Shown here in pieces: positions 11,988 to 59,084 of a DNA stretch of 64,000 nt (its first letter is position 1; each line of letters starts with the position of its first letter). The stretch lies in assembly GCA_903885445.1 (NCBI GenBank), contig CAISIO010000020.1, forward strand, positions 55 through 64,054, read 5' to 3'. This DNA comes from Candidatus Staskawiczbacteria bacterium (GTDB lineage: Bacteria; Patescibacteriota; Minisyncoccia; Minisyncoccales; Staskawiczbacteraceae). Position numbers and translations under genes: made by a program. Under the pieces are notes generated by a model, which worked only from the letters and a program-made list of their open reading frames with translations, ran no database searches and was not told the origin of the DNA.

Positions 11988-12006
11988 AACTTGGACAGGG
12001 CGCTTC

Positions 12007-12062: not shown

Positions 12063-12074
12063 ATTTATTTGTTG

Positions 12075-12103
12075 TTGACATTGGTTTATTATTGTGCTAT
12101 CAT
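12075..12103 (+). promoter_or_regulatory. Near-consensus sigma70 promoter with extended -10
   Basis: TTGACA (12075-12080), 17 nt spacer, TGcTATCAT (12095-12103). Confidence 0.5.
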
Positions 12104-12109
12104 GATTAT

Positions 12110-15387: not shown

Positions 15388-15461
15388 TGCGGGATCGTCT
15401 AATGGTAGGACATCGCCCTCTGGAGGCGAGTATCTTGGTTCGAGTCCAAGTCCCGCAGCCA
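15388..15461 (+). tRNA. tRNA-Gln (anticodon CTG), CCA encoded
   Basis: Acceptor TGCGGGA/TCCCGCA (U1:A72), D-arm GTCT-AATGGTA-GGAC, anticodon loop CTCTGGA, T-arm CTTGG-TTCGAGT-CCAAG, discriminator G then CCA. Confidence 0.85.
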
Positions 15462-17226: not shown

Positions 17227-17358
17227 ATTTGTTATTAGTTTTAGAAACTATAAGCTACTCAAGAATAACTTTTTTGTCAACAGTGTCAAAAGTGGAAATA
17301 CTAAGATATAATTATTTTATAAAGTCATAAAAATTAATTATTCGAATGAAAGAAAAAC

Positions 17359-18198
17359 ATGAAAAGATATAGAATTTTTAACTTTGATTTTAATGCCCGA
17401 GCAAATATTCTAAATACAAAAATTGAAGATCATTGGGATGAAAAAGTTAAAGAACTGTGGGCAGAGAATAAAAAGTCTACGGAGGCTGATTTAGCAACAG
17501 AGTTTGGTTTGTATAATAAAGAAATAAAACTTAAAAATTTTAAAGATTTGGGATCAGCGCCACTTTCTATAATAGCATTTCATAACAAGTTTTTTAGACA
17601 AATAAGAAAAAGTTTTGTTATCGGGTCTTATTATCCTGCACTTACTGGATCTTGTGCCTTGGGTGAACGAATTTTAAACTATTTAATTTTAACTTTAAAA
17701 AATGATTTTAAGAAAACCCCAGAATATAAAAAAATATATGATAAAAAATCCTTTGATAATTGGGACGAAGCCATAAATATATTGGAATCGTGGAAAGTGT
17801 TATTGCCAGGTGTTGTATCTAAATTTAAGGACTTAAAGAATATAAGGAATAGAGAAGCAATTCATTTTAATATTGAAACAGAGGATAAAGACAGAGAAAC
17901 AGCATTAAGAGCTATTAATTTATTAGCGGAAATCATTGGCGGTCAGTTTGCTTTTTTAGGATTGCAACCATGGTTTATCGAGAATACTAAGGGAGAATTT
18001 TATATAAAGAAGGACTGGGAAGCTAATCCATTCATTAAAGCTGTTTATGTCCCTAATTGTGTTCTAGCCGGTCCATTTCACAAGGTTGAAACGGTTAGCG
18101 GTGGATTAGAAGTGGTTGATGATTTTAAGTATGAAAATGAAGAAATCAGCGATTCCGAATTTGTGAAGCTCAGGGAGAAATTTACTGGAAAAGGGTAG
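17359..18198 (+). CDS. Hypothetical 279-aa protein with a HEPN-like Rx4-6H motif
   Basis: Helical segment GSYYPALTGSCALGERILNYLI followed by LKNIRNREAIHF (R-x5-H with Asn after the Arg). A TATAAT box lies at 17307-17312. Confidence 0.75.
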   Translation: MKRYRIFNFDFNARANILNTKIEDHWDEKVKELWAENKKSTEADLATEFGLYNKEIKLKNFKDLGSAPLSIIAFHNKFFRQIRKSFVIGSYYPALTGSCALGERILNYLILTLKNDFKKTPEYKKIYDKKSFDNWDEAINILESWKVLLPGVVSKFKDLKNIRNREAIHFNIETEDKDRETALRAINLLAEIIGGQFAFLGLQPWFIENTKGEFYIKKDWEANPFIKAVYVPNCVLAGPFHKVETVSGGLEVVDDFKYENEEISDSEFVKLREKFTGKG

Positions 18199-18392: not shown

Positions 18393-18452
18393 TTGGAATA
18401 ATTTGTGCGCCCTGAGTATTGCTAAAAGTGAAATTTTGTGTTAGAGTGGCTT

Positions 18453-20018
18453 ATGAAAAAAATACTCATAGTTTGCTTGTTTGCGTTTATTTTATCGGCT
18501 GGTTCGGCTTTCGCGATTGCAATGCCTGCTTTGATTTTGCCTAAAATTTCCTCGCCCAAGCTCGGAAAAGTCCAAAACATGAACCCCTTAACCTTGACTA
18601 GAAGCGTGGTTGGAGTTCCTGTGACTTCGGGAAATTATATAGTTTGGGAAGACATGAGAGATAATGGTACTACGGGTCGTGATATTTACAGAATGGATAA
18701 AAACACCGGAGTCGAGCTTGCGTTATGTACTGAAACGGGTAATCAAACTGCTCCCTATATTGATGGAAATATCGCTACTTGGACTGATACAAGGTTGGGT
18801 CATTCGGAAATTTATTACTACTATATGGACATTAAAAGAGAAATCCGTGTAAGTAGCTTGGTTAGCAGATATGTTAAGGGAATAAGCGGAAATAATATTT
18901 TAGCGATGGAATCCCAGGGGGCAGCCGGTTATTATGAATTGATTGCTTATAACTATCCGTCCAACCAGTTGAAAATAATTGCTTCGTCTCTTACTTTATC
19001 ATCAAGCGCAGCTATTGATGGAAATATTGTTGTTTGGACAGATTCCAGCTCCCATGTTCATGCTTATGATTTATCTTTAAATAAGGAGATTGTAGCTTCT
19101 ACAAGTACCGCAATGCAGTCAGAGCCGACAGTAAGCGAGGATATGATTGTCTGGAAAGATTACAGAAGTAATTCTCTCGGCGATATTTGGGGGTACGACA
19201 TTTCAGCCAAAAAAGAATTTTTAATTTATTTTCCTTCGACCACAGGCTTGAAATCTGTGCATGTCGGAAAAAGATACGTTGTTTTTGAACAGAACCATAA
19301 GATTTATGCCTATCACATTGATACAAAAATTTTAAGTACTCTTGCCAATGGCACCCCTGACTATGCTAATCCATCGATAAAAAATAACGTGGTAGTTTGG
19401 ACAAATGATGAGACAAGCTACGGCGGAAACATTTTTACAGCAACTTTGCCGGATGTGCCGGCGGTTAAATCTTTTGTGGTTGGGGATGGATCGTCGCAAA
19501 GATTTTATGTTAACAAAGTAAAATGGGTTTTTAATACTGACACTAACATCCCACAATTAATAGCAGATGGGAGCATCGTAAATGCGGTGAAAATTATAAA
19601 CCTTGGAACTCGCGCTAAAACCAGCCCGATTAGCCAGAATTTAGTATTGAATGTTTCAGATTTCAGTTATGACTCAGCAACAAGAACTTTAACTTGGAAT
19701 TATCATACAACTGCGGTTGATAAAAGCGTCCCTGCCGGATTATACAACACAACGATATTCTTTTCGTATATTACAAGCGGGGATAACACTCATCCTGTCG
19801 CAAATGTGGTTAACTATTTTTACAGGCTTAAAGGCGACACAAATGGTGATGCAAAAGTAGATGCTTCAGATCTAAATGTTTTGGAAAACGCTTTTGGAGC
19901 TAAGCCTGGTGATGCAAAATGGAATTCAAATGCGGATTTTGACAAAAATTCGAATATTGATTTTATGGATTACCTTGAGATGAAGGCAGATTTCGGAAGT
20001 TATATTGAAACATTATAA
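18453..20018 (+). CDS. Secreted beta-propeller-like repeat protein with a C-terminal dockerin-like module
   Basis: Signal peptide MKKILIVCLFAFILSAGSAFA. Recurrent GN(I/Y)(I/V)VW(T/E)D motifs occur at least 5 times. The C-terminus GDTNGDAKVDASDL ... DFDKNSNIDFMDY is a two-segment EF-hand-type dockerin pattern. Confidence 0.7.
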   Translation: MKKILIVCLFAFILSAGSAFAIAMPALILPKISSPKLGKVQNMNPLTLTRSVVGVPVTSGNYIVWEDMRDNGTTGRDIYRMDKNTGVELALCTETGNQTAPYIDGNIATWTDTRLGHSEIYYYYMDIKREIRVSSLVSRYVKGISGNNILAMESQGAAGYYELIAYNYPSNQLKIIASSLTLSSSAAIDGNIVVWTDSSSHVHAYDLSLNKEIVASTSTAMQSEPTVSEDMIVWKDYRSNSLGDIWGYDISAKKEFLIYFPSTTGLKSVHVGKRYVVFEQNHKIYAYHIDTKILSTLANGTPDYANPSIKNNVVVWTNDETSYGGNIFTATLPDVPAVKSFVVGDGSSQRFYVNKVKWVFNTDTNIPQLIADGSIVNAVKIINLGTRAKTSPISQNLVLNVSDFSYDSATRTLTWNYHTTAVDKSVPAGLYNTTIFFSYITSGDNTHPVANVVNYFYRLKGDTNGDAKVDASDLNVLENAFGAKPGDAKWNSNADFDKNSNIDFMDYLEMKADFGSYIETL

Positions 20019-41064: not shown

Positions 41065-41481
41065 ATGGATAAAACGGCAATAATAATAATTGGAATAATA
41101 CTGGTCGTAGCGGGAGCGTTTATTTGGGCGGTGCAATCTGCGCCAAAGGTTCCAGCGGGAACAACGCCGGCTGTTTTACCGGCCGGGATAGTTTTATTTT
41201 ATGGCGATGGCTGCCCGCACTGTAAAAACGTTGATGATTTTCTTGCGGCTAATAATGTCAGCCAAAAAGTTAAATATACGCAATTGGAAGTTCCTTTTGG
41301 CTTGAAGACGAGCTCGGAGTTACAGGCAAATGCGGCCGCTGCGATTCTAAAAGCGCAAAATTGTGGGATAGACACGAGTAACGGCATTAGTATTCCATTT
41401 TTGTGGGACGGAACAAGTAAATGTTTTACAGGAGATACGGATGTAATAAGCTTTTTTAAAGAACAAGCAGGAATTAAATAA
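41065..41481 (+). CDS. Membrane-anchored thioredoxin/glutaredoxin-fold protein
   Basis: TM anchor followed by YGDGCPHCKNV (a CxxC active site). Confidence 0.6.
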   Translation: MDKTAIIIIGIILVVAGAFIWAVQSAPKVPAGTTPAVLPAGIVLFYGDGCPHCKNVDDFLAANNVSQKVKYTQLEVPFGLKTSSELQANAAAAILKAQNCGIDTSNGISIPFLWDGTSKCFTGDTDVISFFKEQAGIK

Positions 41482-42609: not shown

Positions 42610-43266
42610 ATGAAAACAGTAATACTCTCTGCGTTCAAGGCGTTCGGCGATTATCCTGTGAATTCGACAGAGGTAATCGCAAAGCAACTCAATGGGGAGG
42701 TCTTTTCCGGCTTCAAAGTTCGGTCCGCGATATTCTCCGCGTCAATTCCTCAAAACGACCGTGGAGTAATCCTTAGGGGACTCGTCGGCCGTTTTGGCGC
42801 CATTGCTATTGTTTCTATGGGAATGGCGTCGGAGAAGAAGGGATTGTGCGTTGAGAGCGTGGCGACAAACAGAATATATAACGAGAAATATTGCCCGCGC
42901 TTAAACGGCACGCCAGTGGACGGGCATATGCGCTATGGCGAGTTGCGCGAGGTTGACCTTTTGCAATGGAATATTAGCGCGTTTCAGAGAGCTTGCCGTT
43001 CTGAAGGTATTCCGGTTACTGAGGTCTCGAACGACGCCGGCGGTTTCTGCTGCAACCACCTTATGTATCAGGTTCTTGTCGCACCGATTGTCTGGCGTGG
43101 TTTTCGCAACGTGCCATTCGTCTTCCTGCATACTCCGTGTTCACCCGAGGCTGTGCCGGATCGCGATTCGTTCGTCAGGGCTGGCAAGATTACCATGACA
43201 ACCGCCCAGATTACTCGTGGTCTTGAATTGCTGTTGAAGCATTCGTCGCTTGATTCGGCAGGATAG
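42610..43266 (+). CDS. pcp: Pyroglutamyl peptidase I (peptidase C15)
   Basis: Catalytic contexts CVESVATN (Glu), DAGGFCCNHLMY (Cys) and FVFLHTP (His). Markedly G+C-rich. Confidence 0.8.
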   Translation: MKTVILSAFKAFGDYPVNSTEVIAKQLNGEVFSGFKVRSAIFSASIPQNDRGVILRGLVGRFGAIAIVSMGMASEKKGLCVESVATNRIYNEKYCPRLNGTPVDGHMRYGELREVDLLQWNISAFQRACRSEGIPVTEVSNDAGGFCCNHLMYQVLVAPIVWRGFRNVPFVFLHTPCSPEAVPDRDSFVRAGKITMTTAQITRGLELLLKHSSLDSAG

Positions 43267-45045: not shown

Positions 45046-45224
45046 AGTTGTAAAATATAAAAAGCCTGGTTTATCGCTGGGCTTTTTAGTTAAATTTAGC
45101 TGTGGATAAGTTATCTTAGTCTTGCCATTGAAACAGTTTCAGGGGGAGGTATAATTAAGTAAATTAAAAACTGCAAAATATAAAAGAGTAAAAATAATAT
45201 TAATTTTTATTTTGCAGAAAATAT

Positions 45225-46580
45225 ATGAAAAGCAAAGTTCTATTAGCAGTAGCCATCTTATCAGCGGCATTTTTAGCAGTCGGCGGAGTTGCCTTCGCAG
45301 CAGGAAATCTCCCGCCGGTAATTAGCGGTGTTTCCGGGCCAGTGGTTTTGTCTGTTGGACAAGCGGGGACTTGGACGATTAGCGCAAGTGATCCGGAAAA
45401 TGGAGTATTAAATTATTCAGTTTTATGGGGAGAGCCTGCCACAAAAAGCGCAGCCCCTGTGGTTTATATACAGACTACAACATTTACCCACTCCTACACA
45501 AAACAAGGAAATTATACGGTAAATTTTTCCGTTAAAGACAACGTTGGAAGCATAGCAAAAAGTTCAATAACGGTTAATGTCGCCGGTCCAACCCAGCCTG
45601 CCCCAACTCCCGTTCCAATTTCTTCTATGAAAGTAACTTCGCCGAATGGGGGAGAAACATTGCAGACTGGAAGCACGCAAAGTATTATATGGGCCAAGGG
45701 TAATGTTTCGGTAGCTAGTGTTAAAATAGAACTTTTAAAAGGAGGAGTTCTTGTAAAAACCATTGTGACATCAACCCTGAATAATGGAATTTATAAATGG
45801 GCTGTTCCAACAAGCCTAGCGGTAGGTAATGATTATTACTTGAAAATCAGCGACGTTAAAAACGTTAATACGTTTGATAAGAGCGACAATCTTTTTAGTA
45901 TTGCTAAACCGGTAGTCGCGCCGGCCATAACTAATATTTCTCCTGCGGCCGGTGTTTTGGGCGCCAAGGTGACAATTACCGGTTCCGGTTTTACATCTAC
46001 GGGTAATCAGACTATGTTTTCCTGCCCCGCAGGCGGTGGAGGAGACACAAATGCTCTTTCTGCTAACGGTAAGACAATTTCGACAGCTGTTATTTCGGGT
46101 TTCCCAATTCCAGTGGGTTCGCAGCTAAGCTATCCGCAAAAATGCACGGTAAATGTATCAAACGCAAACGGAACAAGTAAAAGCGTTTCATTCACGATTA
46201 CGGCTCCGCCTGCGGCCAAAGCCTCAATTGCTGTTATTTCACCGAATGGGGGAGAGATATGGCAAATAGGTAGTACACAGAATATTGCCTGGTCTTCGGC
46301 CGGACCAGCCCTTTCAAATGTAAATATATATCTTTATAAGGCAGGGAAAATAGCCAAGACGATTATAGCTAAGGCAAGCAATGCAAAAGGCACATGGTCT
46401 TGGAAGGTTCCGATTAATATAGCGGCTGGCAATGATTATAAGATTAGGGTGGCAAACTATGCGAAAACCACGCTTTATGACGAGAGCGATAACACTTTCA
46501 GTATCGTCAAACCGGCCGCCGGTTTCTTGGGCGGAGTAACGGATTGGTTCTCTTCTTTGCTCAACGCATTCGGCAAATAA
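45225..46580 (+). CDS. Secreted multi-domain surface protein (PKD-like, two Kre9/KNH-like Ser-Thr-rich modules, IPT/TIG-like)
   Basis: Signal peptide. FTHSYTKQGNYTVNFSVKDNVG is PKD-like. SPNGGE(T/I)(L/W)Q.GSTQ.I.W occurs twice. ITNISPAAGVLGAKVTITGSGF is IPT-like. Confidence 0.65.
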   Translation: MKSKVLLAVAILSAAFLAVGGVAFAAGNLPPVISGVSGPVVLSVGQAGTWTISASDPENGVLNYSVLWGEPATKSAAPVVYIQTTTFTHSYTKQGNYTVNFSVKDNVGSIAKSSITVNVAGPTQPAPTPVPISSMKVTSPNGGETLQTGSTQSIIWAKGNVSVASVKIELLKGGVLVKTIVTSTLNNGIYKWAVPTSLAVGNDYYLKISDVKNVNTFDKSDNLFSIAKPVVAPAITNISPAAGVLGAKVTITGSGFTSTGNQTMFSCPAGGGGDTNALSANGKTISTAVISGFPIPVGSQLSYPQKCTVNVSNANGTSKSVSFTITAPPAAKASIAVISPNGGEIWQIGSTQNIAWSSAGPALSNVNIYLYKAGKIAKTIIAKASNAKGTWSWKVPINIAAGNDYKIRVANYAKTTLYDESDNTFSIVKPAAGFLGGVTDWFSSLLNAFGK

Positions 46581-48854: not shown

Positions 48855-50651
48855 ATGATAAAGCTTTTAATCGGTTTAATTTTACTGGCAATTCCCTTTT
48901 TGTTAGTTGGATTGTTTAGAAACAAGAAAAAGGGATTTGTTTACGTCCTTTTCTTCTGGCTTTTATTCCATGCTTGTTTAGCTGTTTTATCACAAGTTTT
49001 TGGAATTTTTTATTACGGAGTTTTATTGGCTGGAAATTTGCTGGCAACGGCAGTCGCGCTTGTTTTTTATTTTAAGCGTAAAAACTTTAAAAAAACAGTT
49101 TTTAATTTTTTGAAATTAGACTGGCTTTTGCTGGTTGTAATAGTTGTCTCTTTTTTGAGTTTAATCCAGGTTCATTATAATTACACCGGAAAATTGAGCA
49201 TGGTTCAAGACGGAGCCTATGTTTACCACGATGTTAAAAATGTAAAATATGTTTATCCATATTTTGCCGATGAATGGTATGCTGTTTCTTTGATAAATGG
49301 CGCCATAAGTAATCATTCTTTGCCGTTTACAAATATTTTTGACAATAGTTTTTTTGTAAACCTAGAAATGTTTTTCCATTCTCTTTTGGCGGAATTTATG
49401 CTGTTTTTAGGCCTAAATCCCTTAATGGATTATGTTTTTGTGTCGCTATTTGCAAACATCCTTATTGTCGCGCTGGTTTATCTATTTTTGCGTATAAATA
49501 ATATGTCCGGAGCGAACTCTGCTATTTGTTCTTTGGCGATGCTTTATTTAACGTGTTGCAGTAATTTACCGGGATTGTGGTATTTAATTCCCGTGAACCT
49601 CGGAATTATATTTTGTCTGATTGGATTTTGCTTCACATCTTTTGGCGACACAAAAATGATGTTACTGTCGCTTTTGGCAGTTTTTCTTTTTTACCCGCCC
49701 TTATTTATTTTTTACGGCTTGGCGCTGATAGTGTTTTTTTCCGGCAAGCTTAAAAAGGCAATAGAAGCAAGGCCCGCGCTGATTAGTTACCTGATTGTTG
49801 CCCCGGCTTTGGCGGTTGTGGTTTTATATGTTTTATCTTTAATCCCTTCGGTTGGAATATCCCTGGGCTATCTTTTTTCCAAGCTTTATTATCCTTCTTT
49901 CACGGGAAACCTTACCCCACAATTTAATTTTTATTACATAATTCCCTGGGCGATAATTTTACTGGCTGTTTTCGGTCTGCGCCAGGTTTATACAAACAAA
50001 AAATGGATTTTTGCGCAGCTTTTGCTTGGCTCGGCGCTTTGGTTTTTTTATTCTTTTTATAATTACAGGTTTGTCATAGAGTACGAAAGAGTTGTATTTT
50101 TTACATCCATGCTTGTTGTGTTAATTTCAGGATTTGGTTTGGAAGCGGTAGAAAAATATATAGGCCAAAAATTCAAGAATATAGGTCCTTTAGTTTTAAA
50201 ATACGCAAAACCTGCCGTAATTGGTTTGTTTTTGGTTTTTTTGCCTTTCTATACACAAGGAGATAATTGGGAAAGTTTTGCGCTGAAAGATTCTTCCGGG
50301 GAAATTGGAGCTGCTCCCCGGGCGCCCGCGAATAATTATTTGACGCCCGATGACCTGAGAATCTTTAGCAGCATCAAAGCAAGAAAGTTTTTAAGCGTTG
50401 CATGGAAGGGGACCGTGATTGGAGTAAGTACCGGAAATTATCCGGTTGTTACAAAAGAAGGCACGATAACAATGGGCTCGAGCAGTATGCCCGACAAATT
50501 TTTGAATACTGGCTGTGAAAGCAAAAAAAATATAGCCAAAGAATTTGGCTTGGATTATATCTATTTGGCAAGCGATTTTTCCTGTCCTGGTTTTGAGAAA
50601 GTAGACAAAAGTCCGGAGGGATTTATTTTGTATAAATTCACCGGCAACTAA
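48855..50651 (+). CDS. Large polytopic membrane protein (possible glycan or lipid-linked-sugar transferase)
   Basis: 598 aa with more than 12 hydrophobic helices and a soluble C-terminal domain. It is adjacent to the glycosyltransferase cluster. No specific family recognised. Confidence 0.5.
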   Translation: MIKLLIGLILLAIPFLLVGLFRNKKKGFVYVLFFWLLFHACLAVLSQVFGIFYYGVLLAGNLLATAVALVFYFKRKNFKKTVFNFLKLDWLLLVVIVVSFLSLIQVHYNYTGKLSMVQDGAYVYHDVKNVKYVYPYFADEWYAVSLINGAISNHSLPFTNIFDNSFFVNLEMFFHSLLAEFMLFLGLNPLMDYVFVSLFANILIVALVYLFLRINNMSGANSAICSLAMLYLTCCSNLPGLWYLIPVNLGIIFCLIGFCFTSFGDTKMMLLSLLAVFLFYPPLFIFYGLALIVFFSGKLKKAIEARPALISYLIVAPALAVVVLYVLSLIPSVGISLGYLFSKLYYPSFTGNLTPQFNFYYIIPWAIILLAVFGLRQVYTNKKWIFAQLLLGSALWFFYSFYNYRFVIEYERVVFFTSMLVVLISGFGLEAVEKYIGQKFKNIGPLVLKYAKPAVIGLFLVFLPFYTQGDNWESFALKDSSGEIGAAPRAPANNYLTPDDLRIFSSIKARKFLSVAWKGTVIGVSTGNYPVVTKEGTITMGSSSMPDKFLNTGCESKKNIAKEFGLDYIYLASDFSCPGFEKVDKSPEGFILYKFTGN

Positions 50652-51751
50652 TTTTTACTAATCTCCTTTTTTATTTTTTCGATGAATATTTTTGTGTCAA
50701 AATTCTTGGCTTGGTTTTGGCAGGTGTTTTTGAATAATAGGGGATTCTCATCTATTTGTTTGCCAAGCTTTTCTATTGCTTCTGCCAACTTGTTTTCGTC
50801 TATATCGTCAATCAGTATTCCAGTTTTTCCGTTTATAATTGTTTCTTTGTATCCGCCCTCGTTTGGAGCGACAACCGCCTTTCCCGAAGCCATTGCTTCA
50901 ACCACGTTCATGCCAAAATCTTCGTCTTTTGAGGTGGTTATAAATCCTTTGCAGTTAGCGTAGAGATTTACTAATTCGTCCTGCGAAACCCAACTTTTTA
51001 TTTCAACATTTTTGGGCTTTATTTTTTTGCAATAATTAGCGTAATCTAAAAAATGCTTGGACTGCTCATAGCTTCCTACGATAATGAGTTTTTCCTCGGG
51101 TAGGTTGGAAAAAGCATTGAGTTGCATGTCGATTCTTTTATTAGAAAATAATCGGTTTACTGAAAGCCAGTAATCCCCGGATTTTTTAAAAAAATAACTT
51201 TGATTTTCCACCGGAGGATTTATTACAACTGATTCGCGGTTTAAAAATTTCTTTAATCTGTTTTGGGTATTTACTGAATTACACGCGCAAATTCCCGCGC
51301 TTTTAATATATTTTTTGTTTAAATAGCGGTTGTAAAAAACCCATAAATCAAAAATGGGGCGCAGATGCCAGGGCACAGTTTGGTTTCTTGTGTGTTCGCA
51401 CATATCCCAAATTTCGCGGATGGGCGAGTGGACATACCATAAATTTGGTTTGTTATTTACTGCGCCCGACATTGCCCAATCTCCGCAGACTATGTAGAAA
51501 TCGTAATTGTTGCCAAGATTCAGATTCCTGAATTTCCATAATGAAAACTGTTGCTTAAAGGGCGCGTTTATGGGTACGGAACCTATAGAATGGATTCTCG
51601 GCAGAACGTCTTTAAATCCCATTTTATCAATTTTTTCAGCATCTATGTTTGTTGTGTAAATATCGGCGTTAAGATTTTTAGCTAAAATCAAAGTCACTCT
51701 TTCCGCCCCGCCGATATTGTCCATGAAATTGTGGAAAATTGCGATTTTCAT
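50648..51751 (-). CDS. Glycosyltransferase family 4 (GT-B, group 1)
   Basis: MKIAIFHNFMDNIGGAERV N-terminus and C-terminal EDFGMNVVEAMASGKAVVA (E-x7-E region). Confidence 0.8.
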   Translation of the reverse strand: MKIAIFHNFMDNIGGAERVTLILAKNLNADIYTTNIDAEKIDKMGFKDVLPRIHSIGSVPINAPFKQQFSLWKFRNLNLGNNYDFYIVCGDWAMSGAVNNKPNLWYVHSPIREIWDMCEHTRNQTVPWHLRPIFDLWVFYNRYLNKKYIKSAGICACNSVNTQNRLKKFLNRESVVINPPVENQSYFFKKSGDYWLSVNRLFSNKRIDMQLNAFSNLPEEKLIIVGSYEQSKHFLDYANYCKKIKPKNVEIKSWVSQDELVNLYANCKGFITTSKDEDFGMNVVEAMASGKAVVAPNEGGYKETIINGKTGILIDDIDENKLAEAIEKLGKQIDENPLLFKNTCQNQAKNFDTKIFIEKIKKEISKN

Positions 51752-51752
51752 T

Positions 51753-52892
51753 TTAAATTATTATGCCAGATTGAATTGTCCATAATGCCATCAAAAATCC
51801 CTGAAGCAACAGAAGGAAAAGCATCAGGCCGTTGTCGACTTCCTCTTTCTCGGATATTTTGGCAAAAATAATATATATAGGAAATACAGCCGTGCAATAA
51901 CGTAGCATGCTTACCATTGATGCATGATATGAAATGCCAAAGAGAACCAGTAAAATTCCTGTCAAAAACCATGAAAATCCGATTTTTTTATAAAAAATTA
52001 CCAGCAAAAAAATAATAATTATGGAGGCGACGGCTCCCCAGACGCTTCCGGGATCGCGAGAAAGCAGATTTTCATAAAGTCCTCGGATTGGGTTTTCCAA
52101 ATAATTATGCCAGCCGATTTGTTTTATATGCGGGTACGCGAAAATGTCTCCCGTCAGAAGCCACGTGTAAGCTGTAAAAAGCGCCAGGCCCAATGGTATG
52201 AGCGCCACGGAAAATCCGTCCTTTAATATTTTTAGAATATTAATTTCTCCTTTTGCTTTTTCCGCCAGGAAATTTTTTACATATTCATAAATCACCGGCA
52301 GTAAAATAATTATCCCAAAAGGTTTTGTCAACGTCAGCAGCATTCCGGAAACTCCAGATAGCAGCCATTTTTTCTTTTTTGCGTAATACATGCAGGCTAG
52401 AAGAAGAAATAAAAATAGCGATTCTGAAAGCGCGGCCGACAAAATAAAAGCAGAAGGAAAAACAAATAAATATTTTATCGCTCGCAAAGAAGTTTTTTCA
52501 TCGCAGTCCAATCTTGCAAGTTTGTATAAAAATACCGCCGCCAAAATCAAAAACAGGTTGGAGACTAATAGCGCCGCTATAAAGTAATTCTGCGTAATGA
52601 AACTGAAAATTTTTATAAGAATCGGGTAAAGAGGGAAAAAACCATAGTTCGCCCAGCCGTTAAGGTTTTTAGCGGCGGAGTATCCGGTGCTGGCTATTTC
52701 TATATACCATCCGGTGTCCCACAGCCCCCAAGTGTTTAAAATTTTACTTGGCGAGTAGTTTTGCCGTGAAAAATATTCAAGAGAAGTGGCTCCAATGGCG
52801 GTCAATGCTACGCGGGTTATAAAGAAAACCGCCAAAGTATAGTATATTTCTTTCGGGATTTTTTTTAAGAATTCTTGTGTTTCTTTTTTCAT
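51753..52892 (-). CDS. PIG-V/mannosyltransferase-like polytopic membrane glycosyltransferase
   Basis: The WDTGWYIEIASTGY motif sits after the first TM helix, and there are many TM helices. The start was trimmed to ATG 52892, 7 nt after the upstream gene stop. Confidence 0.55.
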   Translation of the reverse strand: MKKETQEFLKKIPKEIYYTLAVFFITRVALTAIGATSLEYFSRQNYSPSKILNTWGLWDTGWYIEIASTGYSAAKNLNGWANYGFFPLYPILIKIFSFITQNYFIAALLVSNLFLILAAVFLYKLARLDCDEKTSLRAIKYLFVFPSAFILSAALSESLFLFLLLACMYYAKKKKWLLSGVSGMLLTLTKPFGIIILLPVIYEYVKNFLAEKAKGEINILKILKDGFSVALIPLGLALFTAYTWLLTGDIFAYPHIKQIGWHNYLENPIRGLYENLLSRDPGSVWGAVASIIIIFLLVIFYKKIGFSWFLTGILLVLFGISYHASMVSMLRYCTAVFPIYIIFAKISEKEEVDNGLMLFLLLLQGFLMALWTIQSGIII

Positions 52893-52899
52893 AAAAATT

Positions 52900-53658
52900 T
52901 CATTTTTTAATTCCCAAATATTCATAGCAAACAAGCGGACCGTCGAAGTATTCACTTACTTTTATTATTTTTATTCCCGCCTCGGCCAAATTTTTTATTA
53001 CTTTCTTTTTGTTTACGTAATGCATTTCCATTATCGGGCCCTGGGCAGGATTTTTTAATTTTAAGAAATTAAATATTTTTTGCTTGGCAAAATGCGCTAC
53101 GGTCCTGGCTGGCTGGGGATACAAAAATTCTATTAGGCCGTCTTTAAATGATTTAGATTTGCTTGGCAAATTAAAAATAATTGTTCCTTCGGGTTTTAAA
53201 ACCCTTGCGAGCTCTTTTATATATCCTTGCGAGTACTTTTGTTTCATATGCTGTAAAGTTATCAAGGAGAAAACAAAGTCAAAACTGTTATCATAAAATA
53301 ATTTCAAATCAGGATCTTTGTTCACTAAAAATTTGCAATTGGCATTGGTTTTGTATTTTTTTGCCAGTTCAATCATTGATGGAGCTATGTCTGCGCCGAT
53401 TGCTTCTTGAAAATAATTTCCCAGATGATTTGTTATCCTGCCCGCGCCGCAGCCAAAATCCAGCGCCTTTCCGTATTTTGCTGAAGGATTGGAAAATTTT
53501 ATTTCCTTAATTAAATGTTCTGCTTTTTCTGCGCCCGTGCCAAAAAAATCTTTCAAATCCCATTTATTGTTTTTCTTTTCTTTTACCGTCATTATTGACC
53601 AAAGAGGGTCTGTTTTTCCAAAATCATCCCAATTTTTTTGCAGTTCTTTTATGTCCAT
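52900..53658 (-). CDS. Class I SAM-dependent methyltransferase
   Basis: ALDFGCGAGR (motif I) and PEGTIIF (post-II). The start was trimmed to ATG 53658, just after the stop of the upstream GT2 gene. Confidence 0.75.
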   Translation of the reverse strand: MDIKELQKNWDDFGKTDPLWSIMTVKEKKNNKWDLKDFFGTGAEKAEHLIKEIKFSNPSAKYGKALDFGCGAGRITNHLGNYFQEAIGADIAPSMIELAKKYKTNANCKFLVNKDPDLKLFYDNSFDFVFSLITLQHMKQKYSQGYIKELARVLKPEGTIIFNLPSKSKSFKDGLIEFLYPQPARTVAHFAKQKIFNFLKLKNPAQGPIMEMHYVNKKKVIKNLAEAGIKIIKVSEYFDGPLVCYEYLGIKK

Positions 53659-53662
53659 ATCT

Positions 53663-54799
53663 TTACCTTTCTTTGATTCCCAAAATACTAAGCATAAACG
53701 AAGAAAAAAATGTTTGTATTCCGACGATAAGCAAAGTTGAAGCAATAATGGAATTTTTTATTTCGTTTAACGCCGGGAACCCTAACTTTATCCAATTTGC
53801 GATAATAAAAATAAAAATTAAAATTCCAGCCAAAGCGGTCACGAGCCCCAAAACCCCGGCTCTTTCAATGGTAATGTATTTAAAAAGTTTCTCAAAATTT
53901 TTACTGCGGTCTTTCAAATGAGTTATGGCGTAGGTTTTAGCGAATGCCGAAAAAATTATTAACTGGTAGCCGGCGATTATCAGCAGCGAGGAAAAAAACA
54001 TAGGATGGTAGAATAAAGCGACGCCAAAAATTTTTGGAACTCCGAAATAGAGCCACGCAGTGGAAACAGTTCCGACTAAAAGTAAGATAACTCCGGGAAT
54101 AAAAAACAAGAAGAGGGGAGAGTACAAAAGCATAAATCTTATATGCCTCCAGGCGTCTGCCATTGACCTTATTTTTGTTTCTCCTTTACGTGGGTAATAA
54201 TCAATTGCCAGTTCTTTTATTTTCAAATTGTTTTTCAACGCTTTTACCAGCATTTCCGACGCAAATTCCATTCCTGTTGTCTGCAAATTTAGTTTTTCCA
54301 GGCAGTCTTTTTTTATGGCGCGAAGGCCGCATTGAGAATCCCTGATTTTTGTTTTAAAAAACAAACGCAAAAGAAAAGAAAGCACAGGGTTGCCGATGTA
54401 TTTATGGGAAAAAGTCATTGCCTGGCCGTGCATTTTACCGGCAAACCTGTTGCCGATTGCCATATCGAATCCGTTTTTAAGCTGGTTTACAAAATTTAGG
54501 ATTTCAGAAAAATCATAGCTGGCATCGGCGTCAGCCATAAATATATATTTCCCCCTGGCAACTTTGAAAGCCTCTAAATAAGCAACGCCATAACCTTCTT
54601 TGTCGTGCTTTACAAGAATAACATTTTCTTTTTTGGCGATTTCCGGACTTTTGTCGGTTGAAGAATCAGAAACAATTATTTCAGCTGAAAGATTATTTTC
54701 TTTGATGGTTTTTTTAATTTGCGCCAGGCAAACAGGCAAGCCCTGTTCTTCATTTCTGCACGGTAAAATTACGCTTATTTCCGGATTTTTGTTTTCCAT
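53663..54799 (-). CDS. Glycosyltransferase family 2 with C-terminal TM helices (polyprenol-phosphate sugar synthase-like)
   Basis: ISVILPCRNEE, the DAD motif (FMADADASYD), and four C-terminal hydrophobic helices. Confidence 0.8.
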   Translation of the reverse strand: MENKNPEISVILPCRNEEQGLPVCLAQIKKTIKENNLSAEIIVSDSSTDKSPEIAKKENVILVKHDKEGYGVAYLEAFKVARGKYIFMADADASYDFSEILNFVNQLKNGFDMAIGNRFAGKMHGQAMTFSHKYIGNPVLSFLLRLFFKTKIRDSQCGLRAIKKDCLEKLNLQTTGMEFASEMLVKALKNNLKIKELAIDYYPRKGETKIRSMADAWRHIRFMLLYSPLFLFFIPGVILLLVGTVSTAWLYFGVPKIFGVALFYHPMFFSSLLIIAGYQLIIFSAFAKTYAITHLKDRSKNFEKLFKYITIERAGVLGLVTALAGILIFIFIIANWIKLGFPALNEIKNSIIASTLLIVGIQTFFSSFMLSILGIKER

Positions 54800-54849
54800 T
54801 ATTATAATTTAACCACATAAATCAGCTTATATCAATTCATATTTTTTAC

Positions 54850-54878
54850 ACAAAAAAAACCGAGACGCGGGTCTCGGG
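54850..54878 (-). terminator. Intrinsic terminator after the PEP-CTERM gene
   Basis: The minus strand reads CCGAGAC-CCGC-GTCTCGG followed by T8. A second hairpin, GGCTAGG-GCAT-CCTAGCC, lies just upstream of it. Confidence 0.6.
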
Positions 54879-54924
54879 GTTTCACAACTCTCGCTGTGAT
54901 ATTGCTGGCTAGGATGCCCTAGCC

Positions 54925-55917
54925 CTATTGTTGTCTTCGTCGGCGTAGCAGCGCCAGGCCGCCCATCGCGAGCAGCGCCATACTCGCCGGCTCGGGAATG
55001 GGCGATGCTCCATTGGCGCGGCTGGCGCCGAAATTATCTCCCAAGATCGCCAGGTCGGCTCGGTCTACGACATTGTCGCCGTTGAAGTCGCCGTCCGACC
55101 ATGTGGCGCTAGTCATGCCGAAGTGCTCCTTCAGGGTAAGATAGTCAAGCACGCCGACGACACCGTCGAGATTGGCGTCGCCTGGAATCGGCTCCGGTGC
55201 GACGTCGAACATCAGCATGTCTACTCCCGGATAGCGGGCATTCGAAGTGCCGGTCCAGTAGTTGATTGCGATACTCTTGATGTACGAACCGTCGCTGGTC
55301 TTAAAGCCTACGAAGCTGCTTTTCCAGTCGGCCACGTAGGGAGCGGGGATGAGTATGCTCCCCAAGTATTGGTCGGCAATCCCATAGGCGTCCACCTGCA
55401 GTTTGTCATTCCCGGGACTGGTACCGTACAGTATCCAGTACCCGCCGACTTTGGTGGCGCCGTCTCCGGGAAGAGTCAACACGAATGGCGAGAATGGAGT
55501 TAAGGATGAGCCCCATTCTAGAAGGTAGTGGTCGCCGTCAGGTAGTTGACTGGCCTTGTTGACTGATCCATAGCTGCTAAATCCGTGACCCTCCTCGGCT
55601 CGGACGATGGTGATGCCTTGATGCGGCTGGTTGCCAGTTCCTCTTGTGTTGGGGATTGGTGCCGTCAATTGAACTCCGCTCTGCATGAAGGTATACGCAG
55701 AGTTTTTGCCCGGAATCACTAGACCGTTGGGGTAGGTCTGGTTGTCAGTGTCCTCGCTGGCGTTGGTGTAGTCCGGGGCTTCCTCGAAGCTTTCCCGAAC
55801 AGTGTTGGGGCCGAAGTCGGCCAGACCGACTTGAACCAGGTCTGCCGTGGCAGCGCCCGGCACAAAAGCCAGAACCATGGCGGCCGTTAACGCACAGTAG
55901 AGTGTTGCGGTCTTCAC
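54925..55917 (-). CDS. PEP-CTERM sorting-signal protein with dockerin-like Ca-binding repeats
   Basis: GTG start with GAGGAG 8 nt upstream. Signal peptide MKTATLYCALTAAMVLAFVPGAATA. GDANLDGVVGVLDY and GDFNGDNVVDRADL repeats. The C-terminus is IPEPASMALLAMGGLALLRRRRQQ (PEP motif, TM helix, Arg cluster). Strongly G+C-rich. Confidence 0.85.
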   Translation of the reverse strand: MKTATLYCALTAAMVLAFVPGAATADLVQVGLADFGPNTVRESFEEAPDYTNASEDTDNQTYPNGLVIPGKNSAYTFMQSGVQLTAPIPNTRGTGNQPHQGITIVRAEEGHGFSSYGSVNKASQLPDGDHYLLEWGSSLTPFSPFVLTLPGDGATKVGGYWILYGTSPGNDKLQVDAYGIADQYLGSILIPAPYVADWKSSFVGFKTSDGSYIKSIAINYWTGTSNARYPGVDMLMFDVAPEPIPGDANLDGVVGVLDYLTLKEHFGMTSATWSDGDFNGDNVVDRADLAILGDNFGASRANGASPIPEPASMALLAMGGLALLRRRRQQ

Positions 55918-56096
55918 GGTGTAGACTCCTCGTCAAAAAAAGAGCAGCGGTCTCTTTGCAGACATTCTGCAACTTAACTTATATGTTAATTACTATTAAT
56001 AATTTGTCAATGGAATGCTTAAGTTATCCACAGGTGTTGACATTGCCTTTTGTGGTATAATAAAAAAATCTAAAAATATAAATTGAAAAAATAATT

Positions 56097-59084
56097 ATGG
56101 AGAAGTTGAGTGTTCCAGCGCTTTCAATTTTGGCAGGAATTATTTTTGCCGGTATTTTTTGCGCCGGCGTTTATGTCCTTGCTTCAACAGCCGGAGTTGA
56201 TGCATATTTTACTCCTGGAGCTACTTTGAACCCGACTTGTACGCCGGGTTCAACTTATTGCACGGTCACTCCGCCGGTTAGCACGTCTTTTTCTTCTGAC
56301 GTTTTAGGTTCCGGTAATTTTTCTACAACAGGAACATTTCACGCAAAAGTAAACGGCACAGGGTATTATGCCGGTGACGCTGATCAGGCTAGTATTTATT
56401 ATGATGGATCTGTTGGCAATCTGGTTATTAATCCCGGGAATGGCGCCAATATATTGACATTAGGAAAAGGAGACCAGGGGACCCTTAAACTAAAGTTTAG
56501 CACAGACAGCACGACGGGAATAATTACATACGTGGATGATGCTGGGCCGTATTTTACTTTTAACAACGATATTAATTTGCTTTCGCATAATTTAACCACA
56601 ACCGGTAAGGGGACGTTTAATACCTTGAAAGTTGGGAGCTCATCGGGAATTATGTATGTTGCGAGCGGAGATGTCGGCATGGAGACAGTATCTTTGCCCC
56701 TTTCTGAAACTGGAGGAACTCTTTCCATGAACCAGGCATCATCAGGAAGCGCGGGGTATCTTTCTTCTTCTGATTGGATTAATTTTAATAACAAAATATC
56801 ATCATCAAATTATGCCGGCATGTCTTCGGCTGGCATACTTTCCTCCAGCGATTGGACGACGTTCAATAATAAATTATCATCGTCAAATGTGGCTAGCTCT
56901 TATTCGGCTGGCATACTTTCTTCCAGTGACTGGACGACGTTTAATAACAAATTATCGGCAGGGTCTACGGCCAGTCAATATAATGCTGGTGTTCTTTCTT
57001 CCAGCGATTGGCTAATTTTTAATAATAAATCGTCCGGTTATTCAATTCTGGCCCCGCTTATTTCCGGCGCCGGCCCCTCAATTTCTATTGGGCAAGCCAA
57101 TTCCTACAATGACGGTTATCTCTCTTCTGTGGACTGGAGTACGTTCAACAGCAAGCTATCTGGTTTGAGTCCCACCAGCCCGCTTTATTCAACGGGTAGC
57201 GGTGACATTAGAATTTATCAAGCCAATGGAACTGGCACAAATGGCTATCTTTCTTCAACAGACTGGAGCACGTTTAATAACAAATTATCGGCAGGGTCTA
57301 CGGCCAGTCAATATAATGCTGGCATACTTTCTTCCAGTGACTGGACGACGTTCAATAATAAATTATCATCGTCAAATGTGGCTAGCTCTTATTCGGCTGG
57401 CATACTTTCCTCCAGCGATTGGACGACGTTTAATAACAAATTATCGGCAGGGTCTACGGCCAGTCAATATAATGCTGGTGTTCTTTCCTCCAGCGATTGG
57501 ACGACGTTTAATGGCAAGGCATCCGGGTCAATTATGGCTAGTTCGTCTAATGCTGGCGTTCTTTCTTCCAGCGATTGGAGCACGTTTAATGGGAAAGTGT
57601 CCTCTTCAACCCTTGCGAACTCGGTTACAGCGGGCCTCCTCACGTCCTCTGACTGGACGACGTTTAATGGTAAGGTGTCTCTGTCAACCCTAGCCAGCTC
57701 GTCTAATGCTGGTGTTCTTTCCTCCAGCGACTGGACGACGTTTAATGGGAAAGCAGCATATTCATTTGGAGCGAATTCTTTTTCCGGCTCTGGAGATTTC
57801 ACGACAACCGGAAAAGTTACAGCGGGTACGATTATAACAGGAGTAAGAGCCGGTCTTTCTGATTTTGCCTCGCTTTCACCGGCTGATGGAGCCATGATGG
57901 TTGATTCAGGAGACGGCGGAAGAGTTTACTTCAGGTATGGAAGCGCGTGGCATTATATAGCTCAAACAGCAGGTTTCCAAATACCTGACTTTGAAACAGT
58001 AGATCCGATTTCGGGAGGCAAAATGCAGGAAGGAGATATTGTTATGGGGCAAGTTGACAATACGTTGGGAGATGGAGCTTTGCACGGAGTTTGGGTAAAG
58101 TGGGACAGCGTTAAAGCGCAGTTATTGGCAGAGCTTAAAGGTGAAAATTTAAATAACGGAGCGTGGGGACAGGGGACTGTTGAGGGAGTTGACACAGTTT
58201 CTCTTTTAGACAAAGTAACAAACGCGCTTTTCTCGTTGGGAATAAGCATTAAAGATGGAATTACAAGTATTAAAGACCTTGCTGTGGAAAAATTTAGCGC
58301 CAAGGTGGCAAGGATTGATAAGCTGGAAATGGTTGATAAGGCAACTGGAGACATTTATTGTACTTGGGTTGAAAATGGCGATTGGCAAAAAGTGAAAGGC
58401 GGTTGCGGCTCATTGGCGGCTGCTGAAACCCAGCCGGTTGAACAGGCGGTTGGGCAGACTCAACTTCAAACAAATGTGCAGACCCAGCAAATAGTTGACG
58501 CGACAACTCAGCTTTTGCAGCAGGGCCAGCAGATATTACAGGATGCGCAAAAAACTTCCGAACAAAGTCGCCAGTTGATAGAAGCTGGCCAGCAGGTTTT
58601 GCAGAATGTAAAGAATGTGGCTGACGACGCAGCGCAAAAAGCAGTCCAGCAGGCAACAAGCCAGATTGAACAGCGGGTACAACAACAGGTCCAACAACAG
58701 CAGCCATCAGACGTAAACTCTGTGGCGGAAATAGCTGACATCAACGTCGCTTATGGCATCGTATTATCAGATATCAATCTTCCTGACAAGGTTATGGTCG
58801 CTTTGTCCGACAATACCGCGCAGGAGGTTGCCGTGGCTTGGGACACCGGAACGCCCGTTTATGATTCGCAAACCCCAGGAACATATGTTTTCTCTGGAAG
58901 CATTGCCCCTCCTTCGAATGCAACTAACCTTAACAACATAAAAGCAAGCGTGAGTGTGGTAGTTGCTGAAAACTTGGCAGAGGAAGAAGACGCTCCATCT
59001 GCGATTAATATCATTCAAAACGCGACGGCTTCTTTGATTAGCAATATGTCTGGTTTTATTAAATCGATAATGCTGGGCCGATAA
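56097..59084 (+). CDS. Membrane-anchored 995-aa repeat protein (tail-fibre-like GxLSSSDWxxFNxK repeats, Gln-rich coiled coil, Big_4-like Ig domain)
   Basis: TM anchor. There are 12 copies of G(Y/I/V/L)L(S/T)S(S/T/V)DW..FN(N/G/S)K. The Q-rich segment reads QQGQQILQDAQKTSEQSRQLIEAGQQVLQ. C-terminal EVAVAWDTGTPVYDSQTPGTYVFSGSI is Ig-like. Confidence 0.8.
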   Translation: MEKLSVPALSILAGIIFAGIFCAGVYVLASTAGVDAYFTPGATLNPTCTPGSTYCTVTPPVSTSFSSDVLGSGNFSTTGTFHAKVNGTGYYAGDADQASIYYDGSVGNLVINPGNGANILTLGKGDQGTLKLKFSTDSTTGIITYVDDAGPYFTFNNDINLLSHNLTTTGKGTFNTLKVGSSSGIMYVASGDVGMETVSLPLSETGGTLSMNQASSGSAGYLSSSDWINFNNKISSSNYAGMSSAGILSSSDWTTFNNKLSSSNVASSYSAGILSSSDWTTFNNKLSAGSTASQYNAGVLSSSDWLIFNNKSSGYSILAPLISGAGPSISIGQANSYNDGYLSSVDWSTFNSKLSGLSPTSPLYSTGSGDIRIYQANGTGTNGYLSSTDWSTFNNKLSAGSTASQYNAGILSSSDWTTFNNKLSSSNVASSYSAGILSSSDWTTFNNKLSAGSTASQYNAGVLSSSDWTTFNGKASGSIMASSSNAGVLSSSDWSTFNGKVSSSTLANSVTAGLLTSSDWTTFNGKVSLSTLASSSNAGVLSSSDWTTFNGKAAYSFGANSFSGSGDFTTTGKVTAGTIITGVRAGLSDFASLSPADGAMMVDSGDGGRVYFRYGSAWHYIAQTAGFQIPDFETVDPISGGKMQEGDIVMGQVDNTLGDGALHGVWVKWDSVKAQLLAELKGENLNNGAWGQGTVEGVDTVSLLDKVTNALFSLGISIKDGITSIKDLAVEKFSAKVARIDKLEMVDKATGDIYCTWVENGDWQKVKGGCGSLAAAETQPVEQAVGQTQLQTNVQTQQIVDATTQLLQQGQQILQDAQKTSEQSRQLIEAGQQVLQNVKNVADDAAQKAVQQATSQIEQRVQQQVQQQQPSDVNSVAEIADINVAYGIVLSDINLPDKVMVALSDNTAQEVAVAWDTGTPVYDSQTPGTYVFSGSIAPPSNATNLNNIKASVSVVVAENLAEEEDAPSAINIIQNATASLISNMSGFIKSIMLGR
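56750..57755 (+). repeat. Coding tandem/segmental repeats inside the 995-aa gene
   Basis: Units of ~75-80 bp encode the DW..FN motif. Blocks ~56830-57000 and ~57310-57480 are nearly identical at DNA level. Confidence 0.8.

Follow-up and report, generated by a model that had tools for sequence, protein, structure and literature searches.

How does a gene for a PEP-CTERM protein come to reside in a lineage where such proteins are unexpected, and is it a fresh insertion or an old resident? We address this question for one gene within a stretch of 64,000 nt from Candidatus Staskawiczbacteria bacterium (GenBank assembly GCA_903885445.1, contig CAISIO010000020.1, positions 55 to 64,054 of the forward strand), which was analysed at its full length and is called the window here. 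The gene lies on the reverse strand, is far richer in G+C than its surroundings, and encodes a surface protein with PEP-CTERM and dockerin modules, unexpectedly in a member of the Candidate Phyla Radiation (CPR, or Patescibacteria). CPR bacteria are generally regarded as being without an outer membrane.

PEP-CTERM signals are regarded as a hallmark of outer-membrane-bearing bacteria that produce extracellular polysaccharide (EPS) and possess an exosortase; in the original survey, every bacterium with PEP-CTERM proteins had both an outer membrane and a homologue of EpsH, and the median number of such proteins was eight per genome (PMC1569441). A full-text literature search returned no paper tying PEP-CTERM or exosortase to CPR/Patescibacteria; the sole match was a reference-list citation. 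Horizontal gene transfer (HGT) into Patescibacteria is common, and up to 13% of genome length has been attributed to it (PMC12455944, Gios et al. 2025).

An earlier interpretation, made from the letters of the DNA (the sequence-only reading), had considered the gene a recent acquisition, a repurposed surface protein or an assembly chimera. We lean towards a different answer: the gene would be of diderm ancestry and encode a protein that acts as a surface adhesin or binds glycans. It would long have resided at a CPR surface-protein locus whose occupant can be swapped, and its alleles there would have been repeatedly replaced by G+C-richer homologues. The window allele would be a mosaic, and its tail would serve at least as a membrane anchor.

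A G+C-rich PEP-CTERM/dockerin gene on an intact contig

Domain scans confirmed the sorting signal and the dockerin-like repeats that the sequence-only reading had described. PEP-CTERM (PF07589) matched residues 306–328 with 23.5 bits (cut-off 20.7), TIGR02595 scored the tail at 24.4 bits (cut-off 16), and Dockerin_1 (PF00404) matched residues 245–292 with 29.3 bits (cut-off 22.9), a score sufficient for a type I dockerin. The C-terminal tail reads PIPEPASMALLAMGGLALLRRRRQQ. By inspection, the N-terminus has the features of a signal peptide (K2, a hydrophobic core, and ATA followed by D), which are kept in all homologues.

The G+C content of the gene is 58.1%, compared to 39.3% in the remaining window, and its edges are as sharp as had been claimed for this 330-aa gene in A+T-rich DNA: in 100-nt windows, the G+C content rises from 26–35% to 53–67% over ~100 nt, at ~54858 and ~55965. 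The G+C content at third codon positions (GC3) is 0.68, whereas 0.42 is expected for the same amino acids under host codon usage and the host mean is 0.379 ± 0.052 (49 genes), which places the gene at z ~5.6–5.8; codon usage and overall composition (58% versus 39%) both deviate from the host, as those of an acquired islet would. C-ending codons are the main source of the excess. Among codons ending in a pyrimidine (NNY), the C fraction is 0.77, versus 0.20–0.47 in host genes, and at four-fold degenerate sites it is 0.47, versus 0.11–0.31. The purine-ending codons of K, E and Q are also shifted (0.53 versus 0.12–0.46). The 5′ untranslated region (UTR) and the terminator are G+C-rich too, and the reported GAGGAG-GTG start is present. 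The stop codon is followed by three hairpins in a row (−33 kcal/mol, z = −4.0 versus shuffles), the last of which, together with its T8 run, looks like an intrinsic terminator, again as previously read.

The host assignment also stands. AtpD is 85–95% identical to many metagenomic proteins, all named ones of which belong to Candidatus Staskawiczbacteria, and the window, which is part of a bacterial chromosome, carries genes for an F-type ATP synthase, a release factor, FtsEX, TGT, SOD and MnmA, as well as for many large surface proteins.

Exact look-ups with the 330-aa product and with the protein of the adjoining GT2 gene gave no match. The protein is on record, however, as P0001 (317 aa, from an internal ATG), encoded on short contigs of three other ENA assemblies, one contig in each. 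One of them (L001) reproduces window positions 54385–56178 at 99.94% identity, its single mismatch lying at 54423 in the neighbouring GT2 glycosyltransferase gene, outside the PEP-CTERM gene, and another (L002) reproduces 54540–56160 at 100%. Both extend 240–540 bp into the A+T-rich DNA on either side of the gene. Because the two junctions between G+C-rich and A+T-rich DNA lie inside both contigs, a chimera is rejected at the contig level. The three contigs (1.6–1.8 kb) all end within ~20 bp of each other, at 56160–56178, just inside the 5′ end of a repeat-rich Big_4 gene, which suggests strain-level variation or repeats that break assembly.

The locus is occupied in related CPR lineages

Homologues with 35–62% amino acid identity occur in the same syntenic region of at least seven related CPR lineages (Table 1). 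The housekeeping and surface-protein genes around these loci are also those found around the window gene, and the neighbours are 42–76% identical to the window's overall (M50 60%, TPR 51%, MBL 45%, MnmA 59%, ADK 76%), including 42–67% for the ADK/MBL or TPR/large-protein neighbours in L097, L098 and L099. The N-terminal domain of the PEP-CTERM protein (N-domain) is 45–55% identical between the window and the related loci. Since this divergence falls within the range of the neighbours (45–76%), a recent private acquisition is unsupported.

Wherever the contig covers the upstream flank, a divergent large surface-protein gene lies upstream of the homologue, and a promoter block, consisting of CTGTGGATAAC, a variable spacer and a −35 element TTGACA, can be aligned in six lineages. 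The presence of a homologue in the same region throughout, combined with the conserved promoter block, indicates that these lineages inherited the locus from a common ancestor. A recent islet is expected to be absent from the orthologous site in relatives; instead, the site is occupied in L004–L009, L091, L092/L097, L093, L094, L098 and L099, and the comparison does not support the claim of a recent acquisition as it was put. Composition alone would here point wrongly to a fresh insertion or a chimera.

Table 1. Homologues of the PEP-CTERM gene in related CPR lineages, with their composition and neighbourhood
Lineage	Homologue	Gene G+C	Flank/host G+C	Neighbourhood
L004-L009	P0002 (55%)	48%	34-40%	large surface protein (divergent), P0002, Y1_Tnp, GT2; GT2 71-75% identical to window's
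L091	P0005	49.5%	33-37%	A+T-rich flanks, Y1_Tnp downstream
L092/L097	P0003	44-45%	29-35%	adjoins ADK, MBL, Y1_Tnp, SDR
L093	P0122	50%	35-39%	S7, S12, M50, Big_4, P0122, TPR ... ADK, MBL, MnmA
L094	P0123	49%	38%	EF-G, S7, S12, M50 ... Big_4, 437 aa, P0123, PG-binding
L098	P0248	51%	37%	TPR, large surface protein, P0248
L099	P0254	40%	32-39%	adjoins ADK, MBL

A Y1 transposase gene (IS200/IS605-type or RAYT-like) lies near the homologue in three lineages (L005 of L004–L009, 3440–4162; L091, 1481–1726; L097, 3420–4130), with 55–62% identity between related lineages. We considered it as a transposon vehicle and rejected it: the window has no Y1_Tnp homologue, and the divergence between lineages fits an old resident rather than a recent insertion sequence.

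The compositional anomaly recurs across the family

In each of the A+T-rich lineages, the homologue is enriched in G+C, by 8 to 19 percentage points (Table 1). The GC3 of the family is 0.33–0.68, versus 0.23–0.38 in the hosts (L093, 0.53 versus 0.26 ± 0.03; L094, 0.50 versus 0.29; L005, 0.52 versus 0.30), and the window allele is the most G+C-rich member.

Ribosomal-protein and EF-G genes offer a comparison for the codon bias. In L094, the genes for EF-G and S12 have a raised NNY C fraction (0.43–0.50 versus 0.12–0.31). At four-fold degenerate sites, ribosomal and EF-G genes have no C excess (0.04–0.16), compared to 0.29–0.47 in the PEP-CTERM family, and the codons of S7 and S12 in L093 are barely shifted. 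Translational selection was rejected as the sole cause of the bias on account of these four-fold sites. Another compositionally deviant gene in a related genome is a 240-aa open reading frame (ORF) without a Pfam match in L093 (17169–17891; 51% G+C in a 31–39% CPR context).

A mosaic allele with varying C-terminal modules

Four architectures are present at this one CPR locus. The N-domain is followed by PEP-CTERM in P0002, P0003, P0005 and P0122, by a dockerin and PEP-CTERM in the window protein, by a dockerin only in P0123 and P0124, where the tail has been lost, and by a PATR beta-helix and PEP-CTERM in P0248 of L098. Sister CPR proteins end with PGVDMLMFDVVPEPS (MLMFDVVPEPS...), a transmembrane (TM) helix and basic residues. 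In the window protein, the corresponding stretch is PGVDMLMFDVAPEP, followed by IPGDANLDG..., the dockerin and a second, complete PEP-CTERM signal. The internal PEP at residues 241–243 aligns exactly with the start of the sister tails, and on this alignment it is the putative relic marking the junction where modules were fused.

The window dockerin and tail are 80% identical in amino acids and ~84% in nucleotides to the tail of P0006, a 271-aa protein whose N-domain is unrelated to that of the window protein. Its gene (L003, from the same BUCK21-1 sample series) has 58% G+C and abuts A+T-rich, CPR-like DNA with a CPR-style promoter. The named relatives of the window tail belong to Planctomycetota/Phycisphaerae. 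The other CPR tails vary in quality: under TIGR02595 (cut-off 16), P0003 scores 20.1, P0002 20.0, P0005 14.0 and P0122 12.6, all below the window protein.

Beyond this locus, the N-domain acts like a surface domain without a family model of its own, combined with one anchor or another, nearly always a diderm-type sorting tail. Word-indexed searches yielded four full-length relatives and profile searches four more, and a metagenome scan with a 10-sequence alignment returned 4 loci. In an exhaustive search of 1.84 billion representatives with a hidden Markov model, we obtained 74 N-domain clusters (26 at E ≤ 1e-30), 51 of which have a recognisable PEP-CTERM-like tail; others carry cyano-PEP, IPTL-CTERM or type IX secretion system tails. 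Two peptide patterns used as queries found no N-domain relatives among 185,579 GTDB species-representative genomes. Viral contigs also held none, and phage carriage of the gene was discarded as unsupported.

The nearest N-domain relatives of the window protein are CPR copies (54–62% identity), and the copy of a G+C-rich organism is 46–52% identical. In a neighbour-joining tree of nine close proteins, we found two subfamilies, (P0125,(P0123,P0124)) with bootstrap 100 and (P0004,(window, P0003,(P0122,P0002,P0005))) with bootstrap 86, in each of which a paralogue of one 59%-GC organism is sister to a CPR clade. This organism (L010 and L095, from the same JGI sample) has two paralogues, P0004 and P0125, with a G+C content of 51–52%, below that of their own flanks. 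The two genes are 88% identical in DNA at their 5′ and 3′ ends (L010 264–575 and 1195–1507; L095 443–756 and 1400–1714), which hold the promoter and signal peptide, and the dockerin and PEP-CTERM tail, respectively; the central N-domains are divergent. This cassette-like layout, as read from the two sequences, suggests recombination between PEP-CTERM genes.

Weighing the histories of the locus

On the reading that we favour, a small diderm-type PEP-CTERM family would have resided in one CPR surface-protein/glycosylation region since before the sampled lineages split. Repeated replacement of alleles by, or recombination with, G+C-richer homologues would have brought in foreign C-rich codons and varying C-terminal modules, and the window allele would be the least ameliorated, its N-domain, ending in the old PEP, having been fused to a dockerin and PEP-CTERM module of the P0006 type. 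The foreign origin that the sequence-only reading proposed is upheld in part: diderm ancestry is plausible, given the family's sorting tails and the Planctomycetota relatives of the window tail, but no donor can be named. Several observations weigh against our reading. Recurrent replacement is suggested by composition and domain architecture, and no recombination tract was observed; a single ancient acquisition followed by selection or biased gene conversion would fit the synteny as well. The G+C offset is graded from lineage to lineage and almost vanishes in the most divergent copy, that of L099, a pattern that simple amelioration at different rates would give. The closest N-domain relatives are all CPR copies, and none appeared among GTDB species representatives, searched with two peptide patterns, or viral contigs. 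At the borders of the gene, we found neither mobility genes nor target-site duplications or direct repeats; the sole flanking repeat, an A+T-rich inverted repeat of 20 nt that is 85% complementary, was judged to be due to chance. The TM-scores of the N-domain to carbohydrate-binding modules (CBMs) are low (0.38–0.5), and surface display and ligand binding are to be read as predicted. Finally, the PEP tripeptide is invariant in 5 of 5 CPR tails, which hints, at the level of sequence, at continued processing rather than mere anchoring; as a counterweight, two of the five do not reach the TIGR02595 cut-off, and a further two proteins have no tail left.

A strictly vertical history is possible, if on the unlikely side. 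The gene would have been acquired once in the distant past, or be native, and its C-rich codons would be kept by GC-biased gene conversion at a surface-antigen locus prone to recombination, or by selection (for efficient translation, or for properties of the mRNA if the surface protein is made in abundance), with modules shuffled inside the CPR clade. Such a history agrees with the synteny, with the conservation of the promoter block and with a divergence like that of the neighbours; it does not agree with the G+C offsets, which differ three-fold among lineages. The excess of C-ending codons has the direction expected of translational selection and is echoed in the NNY codons of EF-G and S12 in L094, whereas the four-fold sites of ribosomal and EF-G genes, the S7 and S12 genes of L093 and the shifted purine-ending codons of the window allele speak for another cause. 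The paralogues of the 59%-GC organism are poorer in G+C than their flanks, as if the family had a preferred composition, and dockerins are native to the host genome; yet the combinations of PATR or a dockerin with PEP-CTERM are typical of Planctomycetota/Verrucomicrobiota matches, not of the CPR. Quite improbable, in our view, is a recent transfer private to this genome, with a diderm rich in G+C, either a neighbour or the host, as donor and an insertion hotspot as the explanation for the likeness at the relatives' locus. The frequency of transfer into Patescibacteria, the extreme compositional deviation (z ~5.6), the sharp edges, the G+C-rich 5′ UTR and terminator and the Planctomycetota tail relatives would all fit it, as would a window allele that is the most G+C-rich and has the best PEP-CTERM score (24.4 versus 12.6–20.1 in other CPR tails). 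It is opposed by homologues in the same region of at least seven related lineages, with a promoter block conserved where the contig covers the upstream flank, by N-domains that are closest to CPR copies and more distant from the G+C-rich organism's copy, by the lack of a donor and of any integrase, transposase or direct repeats in the window, and by the identical gene in other assemblies. Misassembly or mis-binning of a G+C-rich fragment into a CPR contig has the compositional jump alone in its favour, beside the shortness and common end of the other contigs. With both junctions reproduced in two contigs that show one base different, a host-type promoter and conserved motif upstream, a terminator ahead of the GT2 promoter and G+C-enriched homologues at the same place in related genomes, we regard it as extremely improbable.

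Predicted structure and role of the protein

The AlphaFold2 (AF2) model, built on a 13-sequence alignment, has a mean predicted local distance difference test (pLDDT) score of 78.6, mostly 80–93 in the N-domain. An N-terminal helix (residues 4–16) is detached from the domain by a disordered stretch; the model then proceeds from a beta-sandwich to a two-helix dockerin (helices 256–264 and 286–294, pLDDT 83–91) and a C-terminal helix. Neither Pfam nor NCBIfam has a family that matches the N-domain of the window protein or of ten further members; the domain bears the family motifs ESFEE, PIPN, PDG.H.L, INYW and MLMF. Its best Foldseek match in the PDB is the DUF4465 structure 4jqr (E 3.7e-5), followed by CBM4-2, HpiC1, CBM6 and a gingipain adhesin domain; these matches are weak and at the level of fold (TM-scores 0.38–0.51, sequence identity 9–18%).

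From this model, we infer an ectoprotein that is exported by Sec, is anchored at its C-terminus and displays a CBM-like domain and a Ca-dependent dockerin; it is probably active in binding glycans or a partner at the cell surface. The Sec signal peptide would export the protein, the ~215-residue beta-sandwich and the Ca-binding dockerin would form its exposed part, with a predicted fold and a putative ligand, and the tail of PEP, TM helix and RRRR would keep it anchored in the cytoplasmic membrane. Given an exosortase-like enzyme in the genome, the protein could be cleaved at PEP and handed to a surface polymer; otherwise, it would remain a tail-anchored ectoprotein.

Dockerins also occur elsewhere in the window. 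A 526-aa protein (18438–20018) has beta-propeller repeats (TIGR04275), a C-terminal Dockerin_1 domain and a native G+C content of 38.5%, which makes dockerins a part of the surface repertoire native to this genome. No cohesin was found in the Pfam scans of window ORFs.

The search for a processing enzyme agrees with the earlier statement that the window lacks an exosortase. We found no exosortase or archaeosortase in the 64-kb window (Pfam on 50 ORFs, NCBIfam on ORFs without a Pfam match; the Pfam scan took in nearly all ORFs of at least 150 aa, leaving out a 138-aa ORF at 41065–41481 and others below 150 aa), and no exosortase among the called genes of the related loci (~60 kb). The PEP-CTERM-like tail of the window gene is the sole one in the window and in the related loci's flanks (~60 kb), and no Xrt-associated glycosyltransferase family reached its cut-off among the window proteins scanned.

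Comparison with known systems

Like the substrates of the PEP-CTERM/exosortase (EpsH, XrtA) system (Haft et al. 2006, PMC1569441), the window protein combines a signal peptide with a PEP/TM/basic tail and bears a novel passenger domain, and its gene forms a unit by itself, with a separate promoter and terminator, a sizeable intergenic region and glycosyltransferase/EPS-type neighbours. Unlike them, it belongs to a CPR host without an exosortase or a second PEP-CTERM tail in the 64 kb or in ~60 kb of related loci, the tails of sister CPR proteins are partly degenerate or lost, and the TPR neighbour is not PrsT, an assignment that was tried and rejected (28 bits versus a cut-off of 312).

Planctomycetota proteins with a dockerin and PEP-CTERM, or with PATR and PEP-CTERM, have the same C-terminal architecture as the window and CPR proteins. 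The last ~80 residues of the window protein are 44–57% identical to named Phycisphaerae, Mucisphaera and Planctomycetota proteins, and the G+C-rich codon usage of its gene resembles that of Planctomycetota-type genomes. In contrast to the Planctomycetota proteins, its N-domain is nearest to the CPR, its gene is embedded and syntenic in a CPR chromosome, and even the nearest tail, that of P0006, has a CPR-like flank. The predicted beta-sandwich resembles CBM4 (1k42, 2y6k), CBM6, DUF4465/BtuJ and the gingipain adhesin domain, and differs from CBM-like jelly-rolls in its 9–18% identity, its TM-scores of 0.38–0.51 and its lack of a Pfam/NCBIfam match; the likeness is one of predicted fold. Finally, the gene shares with the HGT islands of Patescibacteria (PMC12455944) a deviant composition within a streamlined CPR genome, and departs from them as a single gene without mobility genes, at one conserved locus and un-ameliorated in all lineages.

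A PEP-CTERM family conserved at one locus of a CPR clade would mean either exosortase-type sorting in ultra-small, presumably monoderm-like cells or the reuse of the signal as an anchor, and the window gene is a candidate surface adhesin for symbiont–host contact. A bolder proposal, which we hold to be doubtful, is that Staskawiczbacteria-type CPR episymbionts possess a 'hot-swappable' locus beside the giant Big_4 gene and the glycosylation cluster, which repeatedly imports PEP-CTERM/dockerin/PATR adhesin alleles from G+C-rich diderms, possibly their hosts; the signal would then be a plain anchor without an exosortase, or part of an undescribed exosortase-like CPR pathway. If this were true, CPR cells could display host-type matrix-binding proteins.

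Gene neighbourhood and other features of the window

The coordinates of the gene, its signals and its neighbours are collected in Table 2. On the upstream side of the PEP-CTERM gene, the gene for a TPR protein comes after the Big_4 gene.

Table 2. Features of the PEP-CTERM locus and its flanks in window coordinates
Feature	Coordinates	Strand	Basis or remark
CDS, 330 aa, GTG start	54925..55917	-	ORF, domain scans and composition
Ribosome binding site GAGGAG	55926..55931	-	8-nt spacer to GTG start
Sigma-70-like promoter candidate: TTGACA, 16-nt spacer, TAACAT	55983..56010	-	10/12 matches; A+T-rich divergent intergenic region
Conserved intergenic motif GTTATCCACAGG with DnaA-box-like TTATCCACA	56023..56034	+	between PEP-CTERM and divergent Big_4 genes; six lineages
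Sec-type signal peptide, residues 1-25, MKTATLYCALTAAMVLAFVPGAATA then DLVQ, AXA cleavage motif	55843..55917	-	read from sequence
N-terminal domain, residues 26-239, beta-sandwich / jelly-roll (predicted)	55201..55842	-	AF2 and Foldseek; without Pfam or NCBIfam model
Internal relic PEP, residues 241-243, in MLMFDVAPEP	55189..55197	-	alignment with sister proteins
Type I dockerin-like module, residues 245-292, Ca-binding loops DANLDGVVGVLD and DFNGDNVVDRAD, helix after each	55042..55185	-	Pfam, AF2
PEP-CTERM signal, residues 306-330: PEP 308-310, TM helix 311-324, RRRR 325-328	54928..55002	-	PF07589, TIGR02595
3' UTR, three G+C-rich hairpins	54852..54924	-	last hairpin 54860-54877, then T8 54852-54859
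995-aa repeat-rich surface protein, Big_4 domain	56097..59084	+	divergent from PEP-CTERM gene
Glycosylation cluster, native G+C	50648..54799	-	downstream of PEP-CTERM gene, same strand
AglJ-like GT2	53663..54799	-	glycosylation cluster
Methyltransferase	52900..53745	-	glycosylation cluster
PMT_2-like polytopic membrane protein	51753..52955	-	glycosylation cluster
GT4	50648..51751	-	glycosylation cluster

The intergenic motif contains an exact 10-mer, TTATCCACAG, which itself includes a perfect DnaA box, TTATCCACA, and is found in two copies in the window (56023–56034 and 45099–45110). Both lie in promoter regions of surface-protein genes, the second ~115 nt upstream of a gene for a PKD/Kre9 protein (45225–46580), and the first is kept with 0–2 changes in five related lineages (L005, L091, L093, L094 and L098). 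The 10-mer could be a regulatory site common to surface-protein genes.

The GT2 protein scores best with archaeal AglJ, an S-layer glycoprotein N-glycosyltransferase (146 bits, under the cut-off). Within the GTDB species representatives, it is most similar to proteins of DPANN archaea (Nanoarchaeota, Pacearchaeota and Woesearchaeota; 57–63%), ahead of those of the CPR, and a scan of genome contigs with it found no close relative of this lineage. From these matches, it looks like a glycosylation gene common to CPR and DPANN.

Three further regions of the window deviate in composition. The second most deviant gene is that for a Peptidase_C15 (pyroglutamyl-peptidase) at 42610–43266, with 51.6% G+C and a GC3 of 0.57 versus 0.41 expected, which is a candidate for horizontal origin. 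A low-GC islet (29–31%) at 15607–18198 adjoins tRNA-Gln (15388–15461) and encodes a 539-aa protein with a weak resemblance to GapS1, an antiphage family (71.5 bits versus a cut-off of 320), together with a 279-aa ORF without matches; it may be a defence islet. Directly 3′ of tRNA-Thr(CGU) (11635–11707) lies a G+C-rich stretch (~55–58%, ~0.9 kb; 11708–12640), for which Rfam gave no matching family. Either an unrecognised RNA gene or another foreign islet, inserted beside a tRNA, could account for it. The stretch holds a small membrane-like ORF with its own GGAGG (11748–11935), an A+T-rich insert with a long hairpin (12126–12223) and a G+C-rich segment (12240–12640) that ends in a terminator-like hairpin and T-run.

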